Assembly: GCF_004010195.1 (NCBI RefSeq)
Contig: NC_057717.1
Location: forward strand, 106,509,517 to 106,529,516
Direction: 5' to 3'
Length of the DNA stretch: 20,000 nt
DNA from: Chiloscyllium plagiosum
Lineage: Eukaryota
Position numbers and translations under genes: made by a program. The notes under the pieces are model-generated. The model did not search any database and was not told the origin of the DNA. It saw nothing but the letters and a program-made list of their open reading frames with translations. Positions 2,680 to 20,000 of this stretch are shown here, piece after piece; positions within the stretch are counted from its first letter, which is position 1, and each line of letters opens with the position of its first letter.

Positions 2680-2761
2680 GTCGAGAGTGTGGTGCTGGAA
2701 AAGCATAGTAAGTCAGGCAGCACCCAAGGAGCAGGAGAACCAACGTTTCAGGCAAGAGCCA
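2680..2761 (-). mobile_element. Penelope-like pLTR-derived short repeat, truncated within the hammerhead motif
   Basis: GTCGAGAGTGTGGTGCTGGAAAAGCA..GTCAGGCAGCA..GGAGCAGGAGAA..ACGTTTCAGGC is homologous to 4537-4628, 5429-5549 and 6592-6716. Confidence 0.75.
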
Positions 2762-2789
2762 AAAGGCTGATTTGGTTCGGCTGCCTATC

Positions 2790-3830: not shown

Positions 3831-4015
3831 TATGCAGGAATCCTTCCTAAACCTATATAATCTAAGAATATATAACCATCGTACCCGCTACACCTTGTGG
3901 ACAATTAAACATCCCTCCACTAATATGGTCGATGTTAATAATGGGAGAACCCAGCACAGCATTCCAAAGACAAAGGCAATTACAAACATATTTTTGGTTG
4001 AAAAGCCAGAACTTT

Positions 4016-4511
4016 GTTTTTATTCATTCACAGGATGAGGGCATTACTGGCTAGACCAGCATTTACTGCCGAGCCCAAATTGCCTAGAGAGCAGCTTAGT
4101 GTCAACCACATTGCTGTGCATCTGGAGTCACATGTTGGCCAAACCAGGTAAGGATTACCTTCCTTGAAGGACATGAATGAACCAGGTGGGATTTTCTGAC
4201 AATCGGCAATGGATTCATGGTCGTCAGTGCACTCTTAAACCCAGATCTTTTTATTGAATTCAAATTGCACCATCTGCCATGGCAGGATTCATACCCAGGT
4301 CCCCAGGACATTAGGGACATTTAAGTGACTCTTGGATAGGCACATAGATGATAGTACAATGAAGGGTATGGAGGTTACTTTGATCTTAGAATAGGATAAA
4401 AGGTCGGCACAACATCGAGGGCCCAAGGACTGTGCTGTACTGTTCTATGTTCTATTTCCTGTGTCTCTGAATGAACAGTCCAGCAATACTAGCACTGAAC
4501 CATTGCCTCCC
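4016..4511 (-). mobile_element. tRNA-derived SINE (not HE1), split by a CR1 3' end insertion
   Basis: Minus strand begins GGGAGGCAATGGTTCAGTG (A-box-like), resumes after the insert with CTGGGTATGAATCCTGCCA (B-box-like), ends ...TAAATGCTGGTCTAGCCAG...GTGAATGAATAAAAA. Confidence 0.75.
4312..4455 (+). mobile_element. CR1 LINE extreme 3' end inserted in the SINE
   Basis: CATTTAAG..CTTGGATAGGCACAT..GTCGGCACAACATCGAGGGCC..GTGCTGTACTGTTCTATGTTCTAT (CR1 3' UTR with TTCTATG tail repeats). Confidence 0.8.
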
Positions 4512-4536
4512 GTGCTGAGTGGATGATCCATCTCAG

Positions 4537-4628
4537 TTGAAACTTTATTGCTGGAACAGCACAGCAGGTCAGGCAGCATCCAGGGAACAGGAGATTCGAC
4601 GTTTCGGGCACAGGCCCTTCTTCAGGAA
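4537..4628 (-). mobile_element. 92-bp Penelope-like mini-insertion with 15-bp TSD
   Basis: Flanked by exact GATGATCCATCTCAG at 4522-4536 and 4629-4643; carries a hammerhead motif and AATAAA on the minus strand. Confidence 0.85.
4595..4628 (-). ncRNA. Minimal type I hammerhead ribozyme motif, core intact
   Basis: Minus strand UUC-CUGAAGA-A-GGGC(CUGU)GCCC-GAAA-CG-UC/GAA: stem I UUC:GAA, 4-bp stem II, palindromic ACGU stem III, GUC cleavage triplet. Confidence 0.75.
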
Positions 4629-5428
4629 GATGATCCATCTCAGCCTCCTCCTGAGGTCCCCAGCAACACAAATGGAGTGTTCATTAGATTCACTCCACAT
4701 AATAACAAGAAATGGTTGGAGCACTACAAAGGTTAAGGCCCTGATAAGGTTGCAGCAATGGTATTGAAGATGTGTGCACCAAAACTTCCTGCACACCTTG
4801 CCAAATTGTTGCTGGATAGCTACGGCACTGACATCACCCAGCAATGAGGAAAATTGCCCAGGTAGGTCCTGTATATAAAAAAGCAGGACAAATCCAACCC
4901 GGCCCATGACCCTCCTTCAGATCGTCAGAAAATTGATGAAGGGGTTTTCAAAAGTGTGATCAAGTAGCAGCTGTTCAACAATAACCTGTTCAGTGATGCC
5001 CAGTTTGGGTTCCACCAGGGCCACTCAGCTCCTGACCTCATTAAAGCTTTGGTTTCAACATGGACAAAAAAGCTGAATTCCAGAGGGGAGGGGAGAGTGA
5101 CAGCCCTCGACATCAAGGCTGCCTTCAACCGAGTGTGGCATCAAGGAGCCCTAACAAAACTGGAATCAATGGGAGTCAAGGGGCAAACTCTCCACTGATT
5201 GTGGTCACACCTGACACACAGGAAGAAAGTTGTGGTTGTTGGAGATCAGTCATCTCAGCTCCAGGAGTTCCTCAGAGTAGTATCCTTGGCCCAACCATCT
5301 TCAACTGCTTCATCAATAACTTTCCCTCCATCATAAGGTCAGAAGTGGGGATGTTTACAGACGATTGTGCAATATTCAGCATCATTTGTGACTCATCAGA
5401 CATTGAAGCAGTCCATGTTAAAATACAG

Positions 5429-5718
5429 GGAGAAAGTGAGGACTGCAGATGCTGGAGATCAGAGCTGAAAATGTGTTGCTGGAAAAGCGCAGCAGGTCAG
5501 GCAGCATCCAAGGAGCAGGAGAATCGACGTTTCGGGCATGAGCCCTTCCTAACCTGCAATCTTCTTCCTGACCTCTCCGCCCCCACCCCCACTCCGGCCT
5601 ATCACCCCCACCTTAACCTCCTTCCACCTATCGCATTTCCAATGCCCGTCCCCCAAGTCCCTCCTCCCTACCTTTTATCTCATTCCTGAAGAAGGGCTCA
5701 TGCCCGAAACGTCGATTC
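5429..5718. mobile_element. Penelope-like insertion with inverted pLTR pieces and 17-bp TSD
   Basis: TCCATGTTAAAATACAG at 5412-5428 and 5719-5735; minus-strand pLTR piece 5429-5549 followed by a plus-strand C-rich segment ending in a hammerhead motif. Confidence 0.85.
5684..5715 (+). ncRNA. Minimal hammerhead ribozyme motif, core intact, very short stem I
   Basis: UC-CUGAAGA-A-GGGC(UCAU)GCCC-GAAA-CG-UC/GA. Confidence 0.65.
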
Positions 5719-5949
5719 TCCATGTTAAAATACAGCAAGCTTTGGACAATATCTAGGTTTGGGCTGACAAGTAATAAGCTTCATTTACACCATACAAGTG
5801 CCAGATATTGACCATCTCCAACAAGAGAAAATTCAACCATAAACCTTTGACATGCAATGGGTATTACGATGACTGATTCCCCCACTTTCAACATCCTGTG
5901 GTTAACATTGACCAAAAAGTGAACAAGTCACATCAATACTATTCAAAGA

Positions 5950-6044
5950 ACAAACAGCTGCTGGAAATCTGAAACAAAAAAAACACATTTTTGGAGAAAC
6001 TCAGTAGGTCTCCATCTAGGGAGAGAAAGCAGAGTCAATGTTTC
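5950..6044 (-). mobile_element. Penelope-like pLTR-derived repeat, left half of a copy split by CR1
   Basis: GCTGGAAATCTGAAACAAAA..GGAGAAACTCAG..GGTCT..CATCT..GAGAGAAAGCAGAGTCAATGTTTC; sequence resumes at 7698. Confidence 0.65.
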
Positions 6045-6588
6045 CATAAGACCATAGGAGCAAATTTGGCCATTTGGCTGATCGAGTCAGCTCCATCATT
6101 TGATCATGGCTGAAATGTTTCTCAACCCCGTTCTCCTGCCTTCTACTCGTAACCCTTGATCCACTTACTAATCACAAAACTATCTACTTTTGTCTTAAAT
6201 GCAGTGAATGGCTTAGCCTCCACAGCTTTCTGTGGCAATGAGCTCCACAGATTCACAACCCTCTGGTTACAGAAATTCCTCCTTATCTCAGTTCTAAAGC
6301 ATCATTCCTTCACTCTGAGGCCGGTGCCCTCAGGTCCCATTCTCTCCTACTGGTGGAAACATCTTCTCCACGTTCACTCTATCCAGGCCTCTCAGTATTA
6401 TGTACACTTCAATGAGATCCCCCTCACCTTTCTAAACTCCATCAGGTACAGATCCATAGTCCTCTTTACTAAAATGCATATCCTCACACTTTCCCACACT
6501 ATTCCATCTGCCACTTCTTTGCCCATTCTCCTAGCCTGTCCAAGTACTTCTGCAGCCTCCCTGCTTCCTTAATATTACCTCCCCGCCA

Positions 6589-6870
6589 AGTGAAAGTGAG
6601 GACTGCAGATGCTGGAGATTAGAGTCAAGAGTGTAGTGCTGGAAAGGCACAGCAGGTCAGGCAGCATCCAAAGAGCAGAGAATCGACGTTTCGGGCAAAA
6701 GCCCTTCAGCAGGAATGAGCACAGCAGGTCAGGCAGCATCCGAGCTGCAGGAGAGTCAATGTTTCAGGCAAAAGCCCTTCCTGATGAAGGGCTTTTGTCC
6801 GAAACATCGACTCTTCTGCTCCTTAGATGCTGCCTGACCTGCTGTGTTTTTCCAGCACTATGCTCTCGAC
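6589..6870. mobile_element. Penelope-like insertion with three pLTR pieces (two tandem minus, one inverted plus) and three mutated or truncated hammerheads
   Basis: Minus copies about 6592-6716 and 6718-6780, plus copy 6778-6870 (TTCCTGATGAAGGGCTTTTGTCCGAAACATC); imperfect TSD TACCTCCCCGCCA / TACCTCTCCTGCCA. Confidence 0.8.
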
Positions 6871-7332
6871 TACCTCTCCTGCCACCTATCTTTGTGTCAT
6901 CTCAAACTTAGCAACAATGCCCTCAGTTCCATCGTCCAGATCATTAATGTCTAATGTGAATAGCTGTCCCAACACAGAATCTGCGGAACTCCACTGGTCA
7001 CTGGATGCCATCCTGAAAAAGAGCCCTTCCTCCCCTTCTGCCAGTCAGACAATCCTCTGTTCATGCCAGTAACTTGCTGCAACACCATGATTTCTTATCT
7101 TGTTTTACAGACTCCTGTGCAGCGCCCTGTCAAAGGCCTTTTGGAAATCCAGATAGATCAGGTCCCCTCGCTTGCCTTTGTCTAACTTGCCCGTTACCTC
7201 CTCTAAAAATTCTAACAAATTTGTCAGGCCTGACCTCTCCTTGACGAAGCTATGCTGACTCAGTCCTACTTGACCATGCACTCTCAAGCACTTTGCAACT
7301 CATCCTTAATAATGGACTCTAAAACCTTATCA

Positions 7333-7442
7333 GTCAGGCAACATCTGAGGATCTCTTCGGATGCTGCCTTGACTGGCTGTGCTTTTCCAGCACAACACTC
7401 TCCGACTCTAATCTCCAGCATCTGTAGTCCTCACTTTCTCCT
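7333..7442 (+). mobile_element. Penelope-like mini-insertion with short inverted 5' end and 12-15 bp TSD, no hammerhead
   Basis: TCTAAAACCTTA at 7318-7329 and 7443-7454; GTCAGGCAACATCTGAGGA is inverted relative to TCTTCGGATGCTGCCTTGAC; ends CTCCAGCATCTGTAGTCCTCACTTTCTCC. Confidence 0.8.
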
Positions 7443-7697
7443 TCTAAAACCTTACCAATAACTGAGGTCAGGCTATCCAGCTTATAGATTCTGTCTTCTG
7501 CCTCCCTCCCTTATTAAACAGGGGGTGTTACATTTGAACCTTCCAGACTCCAGTGATTCCTGAAAGCTCACCACCAATGCCTCCAGCTATCTCCTTCAGA
7601 ACTGGTCTGAGTTATTTATCCACCTTCATACCTTTTGGCTTCCCTAGCACCTTCTCCTTCGTGATGGCTATTACACTTCTCTTCCCCCTCACGTCCT

Positions 7698-7730
7698 TGT
7701 TTTGGGTCCAGTGACCCTTCTTCAGAACTG
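7698..7730 (-). mobile_element. Right half of the split pLTR-derived repeat with a disrupted hammerhead
   Basis: Minus strand CAGTT-CTGAAGA-A-GGGTC(ACTG)GACCC-AAAACA. Confidence 0.65.
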
Positions 7731-8312
7731 ATTGCAGCATGTCTCTCCTGTTCACTCATCCTAAAAATAAGAAAGGTTTCTGCTTCATGATTTCCACATA
7801 GTGATTAGTTGGCATGATCTCTCTGATTGGCATTACTATGGAGAATGTACCAGGGAACTGCTTTGATTAATTAAAACACCAATGGTGCCTTCTCCTGCAG
7901 AGGCCTGGGCCCTATATATATTTGAATATTGAGTTTCTAGCAAGTATAAGGGAAGCACTTTATGAACCAAACTGATAATAGTGGGTGCAGTCAACTTTCC
8001 CAATGTTACAAGACTCGTAACAGAATGTGTAATGTTCAAGATGGTTCTACAATTGAATAGCACTTGCTGAACAATCCCATGTGCATTGAGAATTCCTATA
8101 ATAACCAGTTTAAAATTAACAGTTGAGTTCATAGTGTCATTCACTTAAACCCACTACAAGCTACATCTATTCATCCACAGGGACCTGTATTCTGCAGGAA
8201 ATAGAAAACTTCCCTTCAATACTGCACCTTTTTTTATATTAACCTTAATATAACAAATATCAGTAATAACTCCCTTGTGAATTATCCATCACAACACATC
8301 AAAGAGTCAACT

Positions 8313-8608
8313 TCATAGAATCACAACAGTGTCCCCATCGAGTCCACAATGACCCTCTGAAGAGCATCCCCCCCCCCCCCCCCCCCCAACCCTATCCCTG
8401 CATTTCCCTAGGCTAATCCACCTAATCTGCACACTATGGTCAATTTTCTGTGCACTGTGGGAGGAAACTGGAGCACCCAGAGGAAACCCACGCAGACACG
8501 GGGAGAATGTACAAACTCCATGCAGACAAATTACCCGAGGGGGGAATCAAACATGGGTCCCTGGTGCTGTGAGGTAGCAGCACTAACCACTGAGCCACCA
8601 TGCTTCCC
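8313..8608 (-). mobile_element. HE1-type SINE with internal poly(C) expansion
   Basis: Reverse complement of TGGCTCAGTGGTTAGTGCTGC (A box) and GGTTTCCTCTGGGTGCTCCAGTTTCCTCCCACAG domain. Confidence 0.9.
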
Positions 8609-8838
8609 TACTTGCTAACTAACCCACAACGTTTTCTCACACATCAGAAAACTGCAGACTGAATACATAGTGGGAAACTTTTCAACTCTTTCTTGTGTCT
8701 TTAGGCATCCATCTCAGAGATAGATGGCTGTGATATTTTTAAGTTCACAGCTTGATTCTGTCAGGAGCACAGCATTCCAAAGGACTAAGTTAAAAATCAC
8801 ACAACACCAGGTTATAGTCCAACAGGTTTATTTGGAAG

Positions 8839-8873
8839 CACTAGCTTTCGGAGCGACGCTCCTTCATCAGGTG
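8839..8873 (-). ncRNA. Minimal hammerhead ribozyme motif, core intact
   Basis: Minus strand CAC-CUGAUGA-A-GGAGC(GUC)GCUCC-GAAA-GC-UA/GUG. Confidence 0.75.
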
Positions 8874-9304
8874 ATTGTGGAGAATAAGATTGTAAGACAG
8901 AATTTATAGCAAAAGTTTACAGTGTGATGTAACTGAAATATTATATTGAAAAAGACCTGGATTGTTTGTTCAAAAACTGCATGAATCCGTCTAAGATTCT
9001 GTAAATCTGTTTTTTAGATTAGAATCAGTCTGACCATTGTGGCACAGACAGCCTCACACAGGGAGCTAACACCCTCAATACATTATCTGGGCCGGCATGA
9101 CACTGTTGTTAAAATTCACTTGAGAATGTAACTTTTAAAAAAAAAATGTGATTTACGTATGAAAGAACTGGAACCAACATGTTCATTCTAAAAGATGAGA
9201 GACTTAACAAACAATCCAGGTCTTTTTCAATATAATATTTCAGTTACGTCACACTGTAAACTTTTGCTATAAATTCTGTATCTTACAATCTTATTCTCCA
9301 CAAT

Positions 9305-9339
9305 CACCTGATGAAGGAGCATCGCTCCGAAAGCTAGTG
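9305..9339 (+). ncRNA. Minimal hammerhead ribozyme motif, core intact
   Basis: CAC-CUGAUGA-A-GGAGC(AUC)GCUCC-GAAA-GC-UA/GUG: stem I CAC:GUG, 5-bp stem II, palindromic AGCU stem III. Confidence 0.75.
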
Positions 9340-10890
9340 CTTCCAAATAAACCTGTTGTACTATAACCTGGTGTTGGCTGATTTTTAATTTTGTACACCC
9401 CAGTCCACCACCAGTGTGTCTAAATCATTCCAAAGGACTGGCATTCTTTTACCTACACAATGTATTTGTCTGAGTTTAGCTGAACCCGGCCTTCCCAGTT
9501 CTCTCTATAGATTTCTGTTGTTGATGGCTGTATCTTTTCATCGACATCATAGAGGTCAGCTATGCACTGGCTCCCTTACATTCTCTGTAAATCTTACCTA
9601 TTATCTGTTGGAATGTATCCTGGTTCACTGCAAGGCTATCACATGAATAGGGAATGAACAAATGCTGTCAACAGAAAATATTCCTTTTTAAACTTCATGT
9701 TCTAATAGCATTTAATCCATCAAATTTGCTAAAAACTTTGACCGTATCAATGCTGGCATGGTCTCATGCATCAATAGATTTGTTGCTGGTTCAATGTGAT
9801 GTGAAACTCAAATTCTTCAGAGTACCCAGGCATCCCATACAAACACTCTGGGCCAAAGTTACTACACAAAAGAAGAAAAACAAAGCTATGTCTTTGACAA
9901 TTTAGAAAGATCTTAAGACAGATAGTAAAGTTTCAATCACTATCCTTTAGAGGTACTCAGTCTCAGAGAAATATTACGCCTAGCTCAACTCTTTCATTTC
10001 TTACTTTACTGACTTCTCAGTTCTCCTTCCTGGATTGCTGGGACCTTTTTACCATTTAAATCAGAATGCTGACATGAACCTATTTCAATCCTAATGCCCT
10101 AAACCTCTTTTCAATTCTAACAACTTGAAGACCCATCAACTCACAAACTTCAGTTGGGTTGATTGCTTCTCCTGATCTGAAAACCAGTTCTTCCGCTGGG
10201 AGTAAATTGTTCTCCTGAACTGAACTCCCAACACTTAGGAAGGAAACTCCAATCAGCCCTAAACGCAGTAGTACAAACATTTCGTTCATTAAGATCGCAG
10301 ATAGCAGATATTCTACTAGACAGTTAACTGACTGAGTAAAAAGGATCTGCCTTCACAGAAATCACATCGCTAGTTCCCTGTTCTAACCACCATCTGACCT
10401 CCTAATACAGTGGTTACTGCACAGAATTGAACACTACATTGCCTCTAATTGTAAAAAAAAATCACATTCCACTTTAACTCACACTAAAGAAAGACTGGGC
10501 CAGGCTACTGAAAATCCATGTAGCTCCGGCTGCATTTTCTTTTCTGATTGGACCTTTTCCCTGTTCAAGTGTATGTCGAACTGCCTTCTATGTGAGCTCC
10601 TTGAAACACCATTCTCTTTCAGACACGGAAATACACACTGATCATCCTCGTCAACTCTCACTGCTCCATCATTAATGTACTCACTTTCCCTCAGAACCAT
10701 CCCTGCCCTCCTGGGTGTAAGGCTCTGTCTGTGACACAGAGGGAGGAGGGATAGGGGGAATCTTCCATCTTCACCCCCCACTCCCCCGAGAGCGGGCTCA
10801 GGGTTGGAGCCGGGACATTATAACAACAACCCGAGGCGCTACCCGGCTCCAGCCTCAGCAAATAGGGAGATTAAAAATATTTATAATTAC

Positions 10891-12115: not shown

Positions 12116-12436
12116 GGGTGGCACAGTGGCTCAGTGGTTAGCACTGCTGCCTCACAGTGCCAGGGATCTGAGTTCAACTCCAACCTCAGGCGGCTGTGCG
12201 TGTAGAGTTTGCATGTTCTCCCTGTATCTGCATAGGTTTCCTCCGGGTGCTCCGGTTTCCTCCCACAGTCCAAAGATGTGCAGGTTAGAGTGGATTGGCC
12301 ATGCTAAATTGCCTGTAGTGTTAAGTACATTAGTCAGGGATAAATGTAGGGGAATTGGTCTGGGTGGGTTATTCTTCAGAAGGTCAGTGTGGATTTGTTG
12401 GTCCGAAGGGCTTGTTTCCATACTGTAGGGAATCTA
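12116..12436 (+). mobile_element. HE1-type SINE, full length
   Basis: GGGTGGCACAGTGGCTCAGTGGTTAGCACTGCTGCCTCACAG, B box GAGTTCAACTCC, V-domain, tail GTTTCCATACTGTAGGGAATCTAA. Confidence 0.92.
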
Positions 12437-13049
12437 AATGTAAAACCATGTTAATAGCAAATCTTGCTAAATTATGTTTTACTATTTACAAACCTACAGA
12501 AGACTTTTGCATTTCTTCATATCTTAACTGCCAATCTCCTGTTATTGTCTCTCTTTGCTTCTCTTATTTCTTATTTCACTTCATTTCTGATTTATTTGTA
12601 TTCTACCTTTCTGCTAAAAACCTGATCAGTTGTTCCATTTTCCCATTGTTCCATTTCAATCTGGCCTGCCAATCTTTCAAGTCATTCAGGTAATAAGTTC
12701 CTTGCAAAGGTAACTGGAGCTTAAAGTGGCAGAGGTCCAGGAGCCACAGAGTGGTGGAAAATGCAGTGAATGTTGTTGAATATTGTGTCATTTAGATAAT
12801 TTAAAGCTGAACAGTTTTATTTCATGTATTGCACTTGCGTTTTCTCAACTGAATGTTCATACTGTGAATTGTTGGAGTTGCAGTGACAGAATTAGAAACA
12901 AACCTTCAAATGTTTAGCTTGACTTCATCAGACTACAGGAAGTACATTGAGGATGCTTTTTTTTTTGTACATAGAAATGTGTGTCAAGTTTTTTTGTAGA
13001 AAAAGCACTTATTGTTAACTTATTCCTGTTATCCTTAAATACTGTACTT

Positions 13050-13406
13050 AGAGTCATAAAGATGTACAGCATAGAAACAGATCCTTCGGTCCAACCCGTC
13101 CATGCGGCCAGATATCCCAACCCAACCTAGTCCCACCTGCCAGCACCCGGCCCATATCCCTCCAAACCCTTCCTATTCATATACCCATCCAAATGCCTTT
13201 TACATGTTGCAATTGTACCAGCCTCCATCACTTCCTCTGGCCACTTGTTCCACACACGCACCACTCTCTGCGTGAAAAAGTTGCCTCTTAGGTCTCTTTT
13301 ATATCTTTTCCCTCTCACCCTAAACCTATGCCCTCCTGTACTGGACTTCCCGATCCCAGGGAAAATACTTTGTCTATTTACCCTATCCATGGCCCTCATG
13401 ATTTTG
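13050..13406 (-). mobile_element. CR1 (HER1-like) LINE 3' end
   Basis: Peptide KIMRAMDRVNRQSIFP..GHRFRVRG..DLRGNFFTQRVVRVWN..GTIATCKRHLDGYM plus 3' UTR ending ATGACTCTA. Confidence 0.92.
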
Positions 13407-13599
13407 GTAAAGGATATCATTACAGCTGTACTGTCTAGGAAATTAATGTTTCTCTTGTGTATTGTGACTTTAAATGTAGTAGGTGTGATCATTGTTGCGG
13501 ATATTAATGAATTCTTCTAATTCTGCTTCTGTACAAGTTCAAATACCTGCTAGACCGACACAAATTCAGAAGGTGTTATTACTGATCTATTTTATAGAG

Positions 13600-14385
13600 A
13601 TACAGTCATAGAGATGTACAGCATGGAATCAGACCCTTTGGCCTGACTCATCCATGCTAACCAGATATCCCAATCCAATCTAGTCCCATTTGCCAGCATT
13701 TGGCCCATCTCCCTCCAAATGCTTCCTATTGTACCAGCCTCCACCACTTCCTCTGGCAGCTCATTCCATATGCGCCCCACCTTCTATGTGAAAAAGCTGC
13801 CCCTTAGGTCCCTTTTATATCTTTCCTCTCTCACCCTAATCCTATGCCCTCTAGGTCTGGACTCCCCCAACCCACGGAAAAGACCTTGTCTATTTATCCT
13901 ATCCATGCTCCTCATGATTTTATAAACCTCTATAAGGTCACCCCTCAGCCTCTGATGCTCCAGGAAAAACAGCCCTAGCCTATAGAGCATCTCCCTATAG
14001 CTCAAACTCTACAACGCTGGCAACATCCTTGTAAATCTTTTCTGAATCCTTTCAAGTTTCACAACATCTTTCCGATTGGAAGGAAACTAGAACTGAATGC
14101 AATATTCCAAAAGTGGCCTAACCAATGTCCTGTACAGCTGCAATATGACCTCCCAACTTCTGTACTCAATACTCTGACCAATAAAGGAAAGCATACCAAT
14201 CACCTTCTTCACTATTCTATCTACCTGCAACTCCCCTTTCAAGGAACATTGAACCTGCACTCCAAGGTCTTGTTGTTCAACAACACTCCCCAGGACCTTA
14301 CCATTAAGTGTATAAATCTGCTCTGATTTGCTTTTCCAAAATGCAGCACCTCACATTAATATAAATTAAATTCCATCTGCTATTC
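13600..14385 (-). mobile_element. CR1 (HER1-like) LINE 3' portion
   Basis: Peptide SYREMLYRLGLFFLEHQRLRGDLIEVYKIMR; homologous to 17170-18056. Confidence 0.92.
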
Positions 14386-14569
14386 CTTTGTTATCAAATA
14401 AAAAAGCTTGTGAGGATGAAAATGTAGCTCCTGAAATTTACAATGTAACCTTCAAGAAAATATCAAGGGAATATATTCCGAGTCTTCATCATATGGTTGG
14501 GATCCTGAAATCTATTGATCCTGCAATCTGTTTGCAACTTTGGTATTAACTTCCAATTACGTATCTGCT

Positions 14570-15937: not shown

Positions 15938-16281
15938 GTCATAGAATCATAGAGTCATAGAGATGTACAGCATGGAAACAGACCCTTCGGTCCAACCCGT
16001 CCATGCCGACCAGATATCCCAATCTAGTCCCACCTGCCAGCACCTTGCCCATTTCCCTCCAAACCCTTCCTATTCATATACCCATCCAAATGCCTCTTAA
16101 ATGTTGCAATTGTACCAGCCTCCACCACTTCCTCTGCCAGCTCATTCCATACATGTACCACCCTCTCCATGAAAAAGTTGCCCCTTAGGTCTCTTTTATA
16201 TCTTTCCCCTCTCACCCTAAACCTATGCCCTCTGTTCTGGACTCCCTGATCAAGGGAAATGACTTTGTCTATTTATCCTAA
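15938..16281 (-). mobile_element. CR1 (HER1-like) LINE 3' end with 8-bp tail repeats
   Basis: GTCATAGAATCATAGAGTCATAGAG tail; peptide RGERYKRDLRGNFFMERVVHVWNELAEEVVEAGTIATFKRHLD. Confidence 0.92.
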
Positions 16282-16843: not shown

Positions 16844-17169
16844 NNNNNNNNNNNNNNNNNNNNNNNNNNNNNNNNNNNNNNNNNNNNNNNNNNNNNNNNN
16901 NNNNNNNNNNNNNNNNNNNNNNNNNNNNNNNNNNNNNNNNNNNNNNNNNNNNNNNNNNNNNNNNNNNNNNNNNNNNNNNNNNNNNNNNNNNNNNNNNNNN
17001 NNNNNNNNNNNNNNNNNNNNNNNNNNNNNNNNNNNNNNNNNNNNNNNNNNNNNNNNNNNNNNNNNNNNNNNNNNNNNNNNNNNNNNNNNNNNNNNNNNNN
17101 NNNNNNNNNNNNNNNNNNNNNNNNNNNNNNNNNNNNNNNNNNNNNNNNNNNNNNNNNNNNNNNNNNNNN
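16844..17169. other. Assembly gap (N run)
   Basis: 326 N bases, preceded by a G-rich tract. Confidence 1.
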
Positions 17170-18056
17170 GTGGACAGTGAAGAGGGTTACCTCAGATTAC
17201 AACAGGATCTTGACCAGATGGGCCAATGGGCTGAGAAGTGGCAGATGGAGTTTAATTCAGATAAATGTGAGGTGCTGCATTTTGGGAAAGCAAATCTTAG
17301 CAGGACTTATACACTTAATGGTAAGGTCCTAGGGAGTGTTGCTGAACAAAGAGACCTTGGAGTGCAGGTTCATAGCTCCTTGAAACTGGAGTCCCAGGTT
17401 GATAGGCTACTGACGAAGGCATTTGGTATGCTTTCCTTTATTGGTCAGAGTATTGAGTACAGGAGTTGGGAGGTCATGTTGTGGCTGTACAGGACATTGG
17501 TTAGGCTATTGTTGGAATATTGCATGCAATTCTGGTCTCCTTCCTATCGGAAAGATGTTGTGAAACTTGAAAGGGTTCAGAAACGATTTACAAGGATGTT
17601 GCCAGGGTTGGAGGATTTGAGCTATAGGGAAAGGTTGAATAGGCTGGGGCTATTTTCCCTGCAGCGCTGAAGGCTGTGGGGTGACTTTACAGAGTTTTAC
17701 AAAATCATGAGGGGCATGGATAGGATAAATAGACAAAGTCTTTTCCCTGGGCTGGGGAGTCCAAAACTAGAGGGCATAAGTTTAGGGTGAGAGGGGAAGG
17801 ATATAAAAGGGACCTAAGAGGCAACGTTTTCATGCAGAGGGTGGTACTGTATGGAATGAGTTGCCAGAGGAAGTGGTGAAGGCTGGTACAATTGCAACCT
17901 TTAAAAGGCATTTGGATGGACATATGATTAGGAAGGGTTTGGAGGGATATGAGCCAAGTGCTGGCAGGTGGGACTAGATTGGGTTGGGATATCTGGCCGG
18001 CATGGATGAATTGGACCGAAGGGTCTGTTTCTGTGCTGTACATTTCTATGACTCTA
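17170..18056 (+). mobile_element. CR1 (HER1-like) LINE ORF2 C-terminus and 3' UTR, relatively young
   Basis: Open frame LQQDLDQMGQWAEKWQMEFNSDKCEVLHFG..RDLGVQV..LEYCMQFWSP..LERVQKRFTRMLPGL; ends TTCTATGACTCTA. Confidence 0.95.
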
Positions 18057-18159
18057 AAGAACTATTTATGATGCATGGCATCCAGATGGACCAGGGATGA
18101 GGCTTGGGATAGACTTGTTCACTCTCACATGAACTGATGACCTCCATCGGTGAATATTT

Positions 18160-18292: not shown

Positions 18293-18349
18293 GCAACTTT
18301 GGAACTCTTTGCCTCAGAAGCAGTGGAGTGGGATCATTAAATACTTGTA

Positions 18350-19025
18350 AAGTTGAAAATCACACAACACCAAGTTGTGGTGTGTTCAACAGGTTCATTT
18401 GGAAGCACTAGCTTTTGGAGCGCTGCTCCTTCATCAGGTGGTTGTGAAGCAGGATCATAAGACACAGGATTTTTTGCAAAAGATTACAGTGTCATGCAGC
18501 TGAAATGATATATTGAACAGACCTGGATTGCTGTTAAGTCTTTCGTCTTTTAGAATGGGTTGCGGGTTTTGGTTCATTGATACGTAAATCCCAGAACTAC
18601 TTTTACATCACATTCTTGAGATAACTTAAGGTTTTTATAATACAAGGGTGACATCTCAGCTCAGACAGAGCATTAAAGATGGGAGGTTAGAATCTATATG
18701 ATCCCAGTCTTGAGTCAGACTGGTTCTATTTCCAAAGTGGAATTTATGAAATATTACATGGATTGACTGCCTGCAGATGGTGCACTTTTTGAGCAAAGTA
18801 GAATATATCTGCAAATATAATTCTACAAATGGAAATTCACCCCATAGACTTATACGTGTGTGTGCATGAGAGAGAGAGAGTGTGTGTGAGTGTCTGCATG
18901 TGAGTGTGTGTACATATGAGTATAGGTCCGCGTGAGAGACTGTGTGTTTGGATGTATGTATGTTTGGTAAAGTGTGTGTGTGACTGTTATGGAGTATAAC
19001 CCTGTGAGAGGGTGTGAGAGTGGGA
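18350..19025 (-). mobile_element. Penelope-like pLTR-type repeat related to 8787-9425, with (TG)/(GA)-rich tract; hammerhead mutated
   Basis: AAGTTGAAAATCACACAACACC..GGAAGCACTAGCTTTTGGAGCGCTGCTCCTTCATCAGGTG is homologous to 8787-8970; similarity continues to the reverse complement of 9060-9205; degenerate microsatellite 18855-19025. Confidence 0.8.
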
Positions 19026-19029
19026 GTGA

Positions 19030-20000
19030 GTGCTGCACTCCCTTAGCACTGACCCTCCGACAGTGCGGCACTCCTTCAGCACTGCTCATCCGACAGTGCG
19101 GCAATCCCTCATCACAAACCCTTCAACAGTCCTGCACTCCCTCAGCACTGACCCTCTGACAGTGCGGCACTCCATCAGTACTCTCCCTCTGACAGTGTAG
19201 CACTCCCTCAGCACTGACCCTCTGACAGTGCGGCACTCCATCAGTACTCTCCCTCCGACAGTGTAGCACTCCCTCAACACTGACCCTCCGACAGTACGGC
19301 ACTCCCTTAGCACTGACCCTCCGATAGTGCGGCACTCCTTCAGCACTGACCCTCCGACAGTGCAGCGCACCCTCAGCACTGACCCTCCGACAGTACGGCA
19401 CTCCCTCAGCACTGACCCTCTGACAGTGCCCACTCCCTCAGCACTGACCCTCTGACAGTGCGGCACTCCTTCAGCAATGACCCTCCGACAGTGCGGCATT
19501 CCCTCAGCAGTGACACTCTGAGAGTGCAGCACTCCCTTAGCACTGACCCTCTGACAGTGCGGCACTCCCTCAGTAATGACCCTCCGACAGTACGGAACTC
19601 CTTCAGCACTGACCCTCCGACAGTGCAGCGCACCCTCAGCAGTGACCCTCCGACAGTGCGGCACTCCCTCAACACTGACCCTCCGACAGTGCGCCAATCC
19701 CTCAGCACTGATCTTCATACAGTGCCCACTCCCTCAGTACTGACTGTTTAACAGTGCACCACTCCCTCAGCACTGACCATCCGACAGTGCGGCACTCCCT
19801 CAGTACTGACCTTCCGACAGTGCAGCAATCCCTCAGCACTGACCCTCCGACAGTGCGGTGCTCCCTCAGTACTGACCCTCCGACAGTGCGGCGCTCCCTC
19901 AGTAATGACCTTCCAACAGTGCGGCACTCACTCAGTATTGACCCTCCAACAGTGCGTCACTCCCTCAGCACTGACCCTCTGACAGTGCAGCACTCCCTCA
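19030..20000. repeat. 33-bp minisatellite (CACTCCCTCAGCACTGACCCTCCGACAGTGCGG)n, continuing past the window end
   Basis: About 29 adjacent diverged units with no unique spacers. Confidence 0.97.

Follow-up and report, generated by a model that had tools for sequence, protein, structure and literature searches.

What are the short, hammerhead-bearing repeats that lie scattered over a 20,000-nt stretch of the Chiloscyllium plagiosum genome (NC_057717.1, positions 106,509,517-106,529,516, forward strand; the window in what follows), and what kind of machinery could have inserted them? An earlier reading of the same sequence, referred to below as the original prediction, had proposed a dense group of non-coding mini-retroelements that carry hammerhead ribozymes of the Penelope-like element (PLE) kind. 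The explanation that accounts best for the data, and to which we assign a probability of about 0.8, is that the repeats are 3'-terminal modules of two unrelated families of hammerhead-bearing retroelements, which were inserted by PLE machinery into a mosaic of decayed long interspersed nuclear elements (LINEs). The module consists of a minimal type I hammerhead (the box CUGANGA, an unpaired A, a helix II of 4-5 bp, the box GAAA and a 4-nt palindrome) and about 60 or about 95 nt of additional sequence.

A loose pattern, CTGANGA-N8-20-GAAANNTH, was matched at five places in the window (4598-4625, minus strand; 5686-5713, plus; 6781-6808, plus; 8842-8870, minus; and 9308-9336, plus), where 0.21 matches were expected, and none of 200 shuffled sequences reached five. 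Under the strict descriptor a match must also have 4 bp or more in helix II, 3 bp or more in helix I, a palindromic 15.2/16.2 pair, U16.1 and H17. Three sites fitted this description (4595-4628, minus; 8839-8873, minus; 9305-9339, plus), as against none in any of 500 dinucleotide shuffles; the site at 5684-5715 (plus) passes only if helix I is relaxed to 2 bp. Intact cores had been predicted at exactly these four positions, and pattern and descriptor bear out all of them. At the four sites the nucleotides C3-U4-G5-A6-N7-G8-A9, G12-A13-A14, A15.1, U16.1 and H17 are intact, and other copies carry single inactivating changes.

The copies belong to two families that have nothing in common outside the ribozyme. 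Family A is defined by helix II GGGC/GCCC, helix I UUC/GAA and the palindrome ACGU, family B by helix II GGAGC/GCUCC, helix I CAC/GUG and the palindrome AGCU; these pairings had been given correctly in the original prediction. Cleavage is predicted after GUC in family A and after CUA in family B. In both families A9 is followed by one unpaired nucleotide and then by a helix II closed by G10.1-C11.1 (A9-A-G...C-G12), helix II has 4 bp (family A) or 5 bp (family B), and helix I is open-ended with 2-3 bp. Neither family has a helix III loop, and positions 15.1-16.1 form the 4-nt palindrome. We infer that motifs of this build would be capable of self-cleavage.

The original prediction had distinguished a third subfamily, with GGGUC/GACCC as helix II, for which the stretch 7693-7728 (minus strand) was the candidate. 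This candidate was rejected, as it has AAAA in place of GAAA and lacks U16.1-H17, the palindrome and helix I. It is located within an open frame (...SVLKKGHWTQNKDV...ITKEKVLGKPKGMKVDK) that is collinear with a full-length LINE open reading frame 2 (ORF2) of the apurinic/apyrimidinic endonuclease (APE) type (P0014, residues 452-470, E=2e-4); the resemblance to residues 400-446 of another LINE ORF2 (P0019) is weak (E=0.33). When the 47 amino acids around the stretch were searched against a representative library, three weak multi-stretch matches were obtained (E ~1e-4), which were uninformative. Judged from its sequence, the stretch is LINE coding sequence whose likeness to half a hammerhead is accidental, and thus two subfamilies are left.

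A covariance model was trained on three family A copies only. It detected ten sites at E values up to 0.1, among them both intact family B copies (E ~0.003), which share no flanking sequence with family A. Because MAFFT did not bring the two families into register, the joint alignment was guided by the model. In this alignment 90.8% of 87 cells form standard pairs, as compared with 16-50% when the partners are slid, five of the nine pairs change on both sides, and the observed score was reached by none of 500 shuffles. Pair 35/36, for example, is C-G in one family and G-C in the other.

The motif copies are not independent observations: they derive from two families and seven insertion events, A1 to A5 of family A, and a dimer and B3 of family B, the motifs at 8839 and 9305 having arisen in a single event. 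The coordinates 4522-9439 given in the original prediction start with the left target duplication of A1 and end with the right one of the B dimer. The insertions and their parts are as follows (distances are counted from the predicted cut; a tail is an extra 3'-terminal segment present at some ends).

2680-2764, minus strand: A5, family A, old; truncated at its 5' side inside helix II, tail-less end about 62 nt past the cut, no recognisable target duplication
2743-2761, minus: truncated hammerhead of A5 (covariance model, E=0.16)
4522-4536 and 4629-4643: exact 15-bp target duplication of A1, GATGATCCATCTCAG
4537-4628, minus: A1, family A, 92 nt; single copy reaching from the first base of helix I to a tail-less end 61 nt past the cut
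4595-4628, minus: intact hammerhead of A1 (pattern, descriptor and covariance model)
5412-5428 and 5719-5735: exact 17-bp target duplication of A2, TCCATGTTAAAATACAG
5429-5718, both strands: A2, family A, 290 nt, inside a fragment coding for reverse transcriptase (RT)
5429-5548, minus: minus-strand copy of A2, tailed end 97 nt past the cut
5523-5553, minus: degenerate hammerhead of this copy, core box lost (covariance model)
about 5549-5677: unique, C-rich filler of A2, about 130-135 nt
about 5678-5718, plus: plus-strand piece of A2 with the intact hammerhead 5684-5715 (2-bp helix I); it stops 5-8 nt past the cut
6590-6868, both strands: A3, family A, about 279 nt, older, with an approximate flanking duplication only
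6590 to about 6720, minus: full copy of A3 with tail, end 95 nt past the cut
6682-6715, minus: degenerate hammerhead of the full copy, A6 changed to C (covariance model)
about 6720-6788, minus: partial tandem copy of A3 ahead of the full copy, motif spacing 73 nt
6755-6788, minus: degenerate hammerhead of the partial copy, core box lost (covariance model)
6778-6868, plus: inverted copy of A3, tail-less end 60 nt past the cut
6778-6811, plus: hammerhead of the inverted copy with a mismatch in the helix III palindrome (covariance model)
7318-7329 and 7443-7454: exact 12-bp target duplication of A4, TCTAAAACCTTA
7330-7442, plus: A4, family A, 113 nt, without hammerhead; the direct copy runs from about the predicted cleavage site (+1) to a tailed end, and an inverted piece of 16 nt lies 5' of it
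8773-8786 and 9426-9439: exact 14-bp target duplication of the B dimer, CATTCCAAAGGACT
8787-9425, plus: B dimer, family B, head-to-head, 639 nt, arms 95-99% complementary
8787-8970, minus: inverted copy of the B dimer with hammerhead 8839-8873; it ends 55 nt past the cut without a tail
about 8971-9425, plus: direct copy of the B dimer with hammerhead 9305-9339; it ends 89 nt past the cut, tail included
about 9393-9425: AC-rich tail of the direct copy, 31-33 nt
18349-18595, minus: B3, family B, about 247 nt, 79% identical to the direct copy of the B dimer, tail-less end
18406-18440, minus: degenerate hammerhead of B3, G12 changed to A (covariance model, E=0.054)

Most of the mutated copies named in the original prediction (those at 2745, 5525, 6682-6716, 6760, 6778-6812 and 18406-18440) are therefore real; the one at 7700-7730 is the LINE stretch described above, and the one near 800 is a weak relative only:

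795-925, plus: weak, old family A relative, in which the conserved GATGCTGCC-GACCTG box comes after a hammerhead-like but degenerate stretch

Its local alignment score of 49 compares with a shuffle mean of 25 (standard deviation 4.4, maximum 45), and the covariance model did not detect it. Its status as a ribozyme copy is doubtful.

Exact target duplications flank four of the seven insertions (A1, A2, A4 and the B dimer). A2, A3, A4 and the B dimer, again four of seven, have a partial, inverted copy 5' of the direct one; A1, A5 and B3 have no inverted arm, and no target duplication could be recognised around B3. The 3' ends fall into two groups. In family A the tail-less ends lie 61 (A1), 60 (inverted copy of A3) and 62 nt (A5) past the cut, and the tailed ends lie 97 (A2), 95 (full copy of A3) and 93 nt (A4) past it. 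The family B ends show the same arrangement, with 55 (inverted copy) and 60 nt (B3) for those without a tail and 89 nt (direct copy) for the one that has it. The tail thus measures 33-35 nt in family A, where three ends have it and three do not, and 31-33 nt in family B, where it is present at one end and missing at two. In A3 and in the B dimer the tail is found on one side only.

These features can be combined in the following scheme, which draws on the anole Poseidon element. A PLE protein with RT and GIY-YIG domains, supplied in trans, would nick the target; reverse transcription would then begin internally, at either of two sites spaced by about 33 nt, leading to tailed or tail-less 3' ends. 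Priming from both DNA ends would yield head-to-head inverted copies, and repair would leave the 12-17 bp target duplication. The hammerhead would be maintained in active lineages, as suggested by two families that have only the ribozyme fold in common, and would decay after insertion. The copies in the window are dead, most of them being mutated or, where folded, locked in a hairpin with the inverted partner: when whole transcripts of the B dimer and of A2 were folded in the orientation of their best motif, the motif was buried in a long hairpin (-345 kcal/mol for the B dimer).

Folding of the 3' modules gave z-scores between -0.5 and -1.7, and the tails had positive z-scores; a conserved stem-loop at the putative RT start sites thus found no support from the folding of modules and tails. 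In two tailed modules (5429-5525 and 6590-6684, both on the minus strand) a box GGAUGCUG, about 17 nt past the cut, was predicted to pair with CAGCAUCU in the tail. This pairing folds no better than shuffled sequences, and the two copies are too alike to reveal covariation. In A4 the direct copy appears to start at +1, as a cleaved template might leave it; this was seen only once, and a 7-nt deletion lies close by. The arms of the B dimer are separated by a unique stretch of 176 nt (8971-9146) that ends in a run of 10 A, exactly where the homology with B3 starts, about 190 nt upstream of the cut. Neither this stretch nor the filler of A2 (5549-5677) recurs within the window, and either may stem from the upstream part of the element or from other RNAs picked up by template switching.

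Several observations weigh against the view that the repeats are PLE-inserted hammerhead modules. Two further ends are irregular: the right end of A2 lies at +5 to +8 and the left end of A4 at about +40. All double changes in the helices stem from the single split between families A and B and from one spurious row, and covariation was computed on an alignment fitted to the very model in question. The covarying stems of the original prediction hold up between the families, not within either of them. The Rfam hammerhead models had no match in the window at the gathering score or at E values up to 10, presumably because motifs lacking a helix III hairpin do not fit them. Minimum-energy folds of single and paired motifs were not the hammerhead fold or dimer, a result that says little either way. 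A domain scan of the 66 window ORFs of at least 70 amino acids and of 10 shorter frames returned no GIY-YIG domain, an absence that concerns these 20 kb and not the genome; the only RT signals there were RVT_1 fragments, and the one fragment with informative relatives belongs to an AP-endonuclease LINE family. The 44-amino-acid open frame running through the family A 3' module had no match among longer proteins at E values up to 10. In the anole element, ribozyme mutations had no effect on insertion in vitro (PMC11167929). Finally, the 5' boundary of every one of the eight family A copies (five events) falls in the interval from +1 to -36 relative to the cut.

Some of these points could be taken to mean that the likeness to hammerheads is incidental, the repeats being SINE-like (resembling short interspersed nuclear elements) and LINE-mobilised, or foldback or miniature inverted-repeat transposable elements (MITEs), with the core boxes situated in hairpin ends. 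Besides the missing Rfam hammerheads, Rfam gave weak matches to microRNA-hairpin models at 6750-6833, in the A3 palindrome; the repeats do form long inverted repeats, the hammerhead-like stretch at 7693-7728 proved to be a product of chance, and integration of the LINE type likewise typically leaves target duplications of 12-17 bp. However, two otherwise dissimilar families carry the full motif with compensating helices, which none of 500 shuffles matched even once, the ends have no poly(A), microsatellite or LINE-like 3' tail, and the one-end tail and the end-to-cut distances agree with the PLE data. We therefore regard an incidental likeness as highly improbable. A foldback or MITE-type DNA transposon was rejected in its own right, on account of the variable length of the duplications (12, 14, 15 and 17 bp) and of the unequal arms, truncated at different points.

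The original prediction had compared the repeats to retrozymes. Animal retrozymes have been described as direct tandems of units of about 150-450 bp that bear canonical type I ribozymes and give rise to RNA circles of 170-400 nt, and the minimal PLE-type hammerhead is set apart from the canonical retrozyme ribozyme in the same account (PMC7229834). Taken strictly, the proposal would mean that retrozymes without long terminal repeats (non-LTR) were transcribed as tandem hammerhead repeats, self-cleaved at two sites, circularised to 170-400 nt and re-inserted. The elements in the window are indeed non-coding and have type I hammerheads that would be expected to need dimers, their target duplications exceed 4 bp as in animal retrozymes (PMC7229834), and in A3 two motifs lie 73 nt apart on the same strand. 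This is, however, the only partial direct tandem in the window, no tandem flanks an ORF, and both cores of this sole same-strand pair are mutated. Tandem Repeats Finder detected no direct tandems of 150-450 bp in the region 4000-10000, and elsewhere in the window a repeat scan for motif-bearing repeats returned inverted pairs and one 72-nt offset only. In addition, the ribozyme is of the minimal PLE type, without a canonical helix III or loop 1-loop 2 contacts, and neighbouring motifs are on opposite strands, where they pair with each other in the transcript. Taking these observations together, we consider a strict retrozyme origin improbable, and the comparison was not upheld. A likeness of a more general kind exists, as the elements share with retrozymes the short length, the lack of coding capacity, the hammerhead, the proposed mobilisation by PLEs and the occurrence of dispersed solo copies (PMC7229834; 10.64898/2026.07.22.740005). 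In the preprint of Li, Clavereau and Pollet (2026; 10.64898/2026.07.22.740005) retrozymes are presented as non-autonomous PLE derivatives and dispersed monomers are noted, so that the general idea of the original prediction has been published before.

The 5' boundary of family A needs separate consideration. Two of the family A copies share homology up to -36 and then run into unrelated sequence, and in A3 the turning point of the palindrome falls within the CUGAUGA box. If a 3-kb PLE transcript were simply truncated at random on its 5' side, a boundary of this kind in eight out of eight copies would not be expected, which suggests that the template of family A was short. The sequence boundary thus favours, to some degree, the mini-element idea of the original prediction. 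Family A, and perhaps family B, could be a non-autonomous mini-PLE, a non-coding RNA of about 130 nt that would extend from the hammerhead to just past the RT entry site and be amplified in trans, like a SINE. Such a reading refines the PLE-module explanation rather than contradicting it, and is essentially the original idea without the retrozyme analogy.

Apart from the boundary itself, the mini-PLE proposal is favoured by the family B copies, which reach to -130, -190 and beyond and show that shortness is not general to the machinery. The family B 3' module has no open frame (stops occur in all frames), the frame in family A has no protein relative, and the preprint cited above, which proposes that retrozymes depend on PLEs and records dispersed monomers, points in the same direction (10.64898/2026.07.22.740005). 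On the other side, the number of copies is eight, all from one window, RT might instead stall at the hammerhead or at a bound protein, the 135 C-rich nucleotides that precede the A2 motif could truly belong to the upstream part of the element, family B lacks a fixed 5' end, and heavy 5' truncation is normal for PLEs according to PMC8557442. On balance we hold the proposal tentatively, at somewhat less than even odds. A scan of metagenomes with a conserved 20-mer of family A returned 17 loci with matches of 20-37 nt on contigs of 41-74% G+C, which are chance matches and not relatives, and the scan of a viral collection with the same 20-mer returned none.

A slightly bolder version, to which we give a little less credence, is that family A is the smallest PLE-dependent mobile unit so far: an RNA of about 130 nt with a hammerhead at its 5' end, a two-start RT-entry module and double-ended target-primed reverse transcription. 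If this were true, the hammerhead plus about 95 nt would be the natural minimal cis-requirement for PLE mobilisation, and the sharp 5' boundary would mean that the ribozyme fold, or an adjacent transcription start, helps to define the template. The boundary would in any case suggest a very small non-autonomous partner of PLEs, and such a partner would be a handy natural minimal template.

The DNA around the insertions is repeat-rich vertebrate sequence with a single N gap (16844-17169), and this region forms a patchwork of decayed LINEs in a genome of elasmobranch type. Two of the host segments carry insertions:

4968-5686, plus: frame-shifted RVT_1 RT fragment, host sequence outside the elements; it carries A2, and A1 lies a few hundred bases upstream
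6040-7770, minus: decayed LINE ORF2, host sequence outside the elements; it holds A3, A4 and the hammerhead-like stretch 7693-7728

The first gave RVT_1 matches with the ORFs 4968-5195 (E=1.6e-8) and 5045-5686 (E=6e-4) and has five relatives, one of them from a shark. From motifs such as FGF..G.S and F-T-D-D, it looks LINE-like rather than PLE-like. Pfam was searched with ten short frames, of which eight belong to the LINE at 6040-7770 and two to other LINE fragments of the window, and gave no significant match. A third RT region, at 17170-17667, is a frame of 166 amino acids with 40 relatives at E values up to 0.001, and most of those with a named source come from skates, rays and sharks. Its full-length relatives bear AP-endonuclease domains together with RVT_1, which identifies them as ordinary non-LTR LINEs. 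The original prediction had stated that no PLE RT or GIY-YIG ORF is visible in the window, and the domain scan of the 66 ORFs and 10 fragments agrees with that.

Among the matches of the 17170-17667 frame are a 'reverse transcriptase family protein [Proteus mirabilis]' (95% identity) and entries under the names of Klebsiella pneumoniae and Carnobacterium maltaromaticum (66-68% identity), and all of these bacterial-filed matches lie on contigs of 1.6-3 kb. Further matches are elasmobranch 'genes' that bear the names of unrelated proteins. This suggests contamination of bacterial records with cartilaginous-fish DNA and the merging of LINE pieces into gene models. Copies of one LINE 3' region, some direct and some inverted (up to 454 nt at 87%), occur at 13048-14387, 15949-16280 and 17234-18057; they sit on both sides of the N gap, the edge of which is a very C-rich/G-rich low-complexity stretch.

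Some other repeats were observed in the window. At 18937-19989 there is a long array of 33-bp tandem units with at least 20 registers and open frames on both strands (e.g. ...RVSAEGVPHC...), which looks like a minisatellite rather than a gene. A short repeat occurs three times (186-357 and 12116-12288, direct; 8447-8610, inverted) and has a tRNA-resembling head, GGG..ACAGTGGCTCAGTGGTTAG...; it is probably a tRNA-derived SINE. ARAGORN called no tRNA in the window. A run of 20 C (8368-8387) is located beside one of the SINE-like copies.

How do the two families compare with known PLEs? Minimal hammerheads in the terminal repeats of PLEs were described by Cervera and de la Pena in 2014 (PMC4209133), who reported 'massive' numbers of them in metazoan genomes, several consensus families per genome, motif pairs on opposite strands 100-700 bp apart, and a majority of solitary motifs 'probably related to truncated PLEs'. 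The window motifs resemble these minimal hammerheads in the core, the unpaired nucleotide before helix II, the G10.1-C11.1 pair and the palindromic 15.2/16.2 positions without a helix III loop, and both families show all four features that are listed there as emerging outside the descriptor (PMC4209133). They differ in the length of the helices, with 2-3 bp in helix I and 4-5 bp in helix II as against 4-5 and 7-8 bp in the Schistosoma families, and in that the published hammerheads are in PLE terminal repeats, whereas here no linked PLE ORF is present within the window. Cartilaginous fishes are absent from the main text of that paper. PLEs have been listed among the repeats of the whale shark, and the sole chondrichthyan sampled in the 2026 preprint (10.64898/2026.07.22.740005) is among the classes with retrozymes.

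Families A and B are new members of a sequence type, truncated PLE ends with minimal hammerheads, that has been described since 2014. As such hammerheads on truncated PLE ends have been known across animal genomes since then, the finding opens no new category. In this sense the central claim of the original prediction, minimal type I hammerheads of the PLE kind on short non-coding retro-insertions, is borne out by core, palindrome and insertion anatomy.

The anatomy of the insertions, about which the original prediction says nothing, can be compared with two further studies. According to Craig et al. 2021 (PMC8557442), PLEs show a high degree of 5' truncation, partial tandems, an adjoining inverted, 5'-truncated copy, and a tail of 30-40 bp, often at one end only. 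Much of this architecture was found here, with 5' truncation, inverted copies and one-end tails, and with the short partial tandem of A3 as a possible counterpart of the tandems, but limited to terminal modules and without an RT/GIY-YIG ORF. Mechanistic data come from PAc, the Poseidon element of Anolis carolinensis, the protein of which cuts the two strands of the DNA and extends them both (Frangieh et al. 2024, PMC11167929). Reverse transcription of PAc starts internally at two sites, with a tail of 30-40 bp between them; the start lies 111-118 nt into the ORF and the ribozyme cut 26 nt after the ATG (PMC11167929), which puts the start 85-92 nt past the cut.

In families A and B, too, the hammerhead is just upstream of the 3' end of the insertion and there are two putative start sites with a tail between them. 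The farther site is 89 nt past the cut in family B and 93-97 nt past it in family A, as compared with 85-92 nt in PAc. Cleavage and extension of both strands, as in PAc, would yield head-to-head copies such as those seen here. The differences are that in PAc the stretch after the ribozyme is the start of the ORF, whereas the corresponding part of family B has stops in all frames and that of family A a frame without protein relatives, and that PAc activity is known in vitro, whereas families A and B are known from sequence. Since the distances (89 and 93-97 nt, with a tail of about 33 nt) fit the PAc figures, we read both families as PLE-mobilised modules; because no PLE ORF is present in the window, we infer the enzymes only by this analogy. 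Two unrelated families of the elasmobranch type thus reproduce, within a few nucleotides, the geometry established in vitro for a lizard PLE (two starts, a one-sided tail and head-to-head copies), and this match lends natural-history support to internal initiation and double-ended priming as features general to PLEs.

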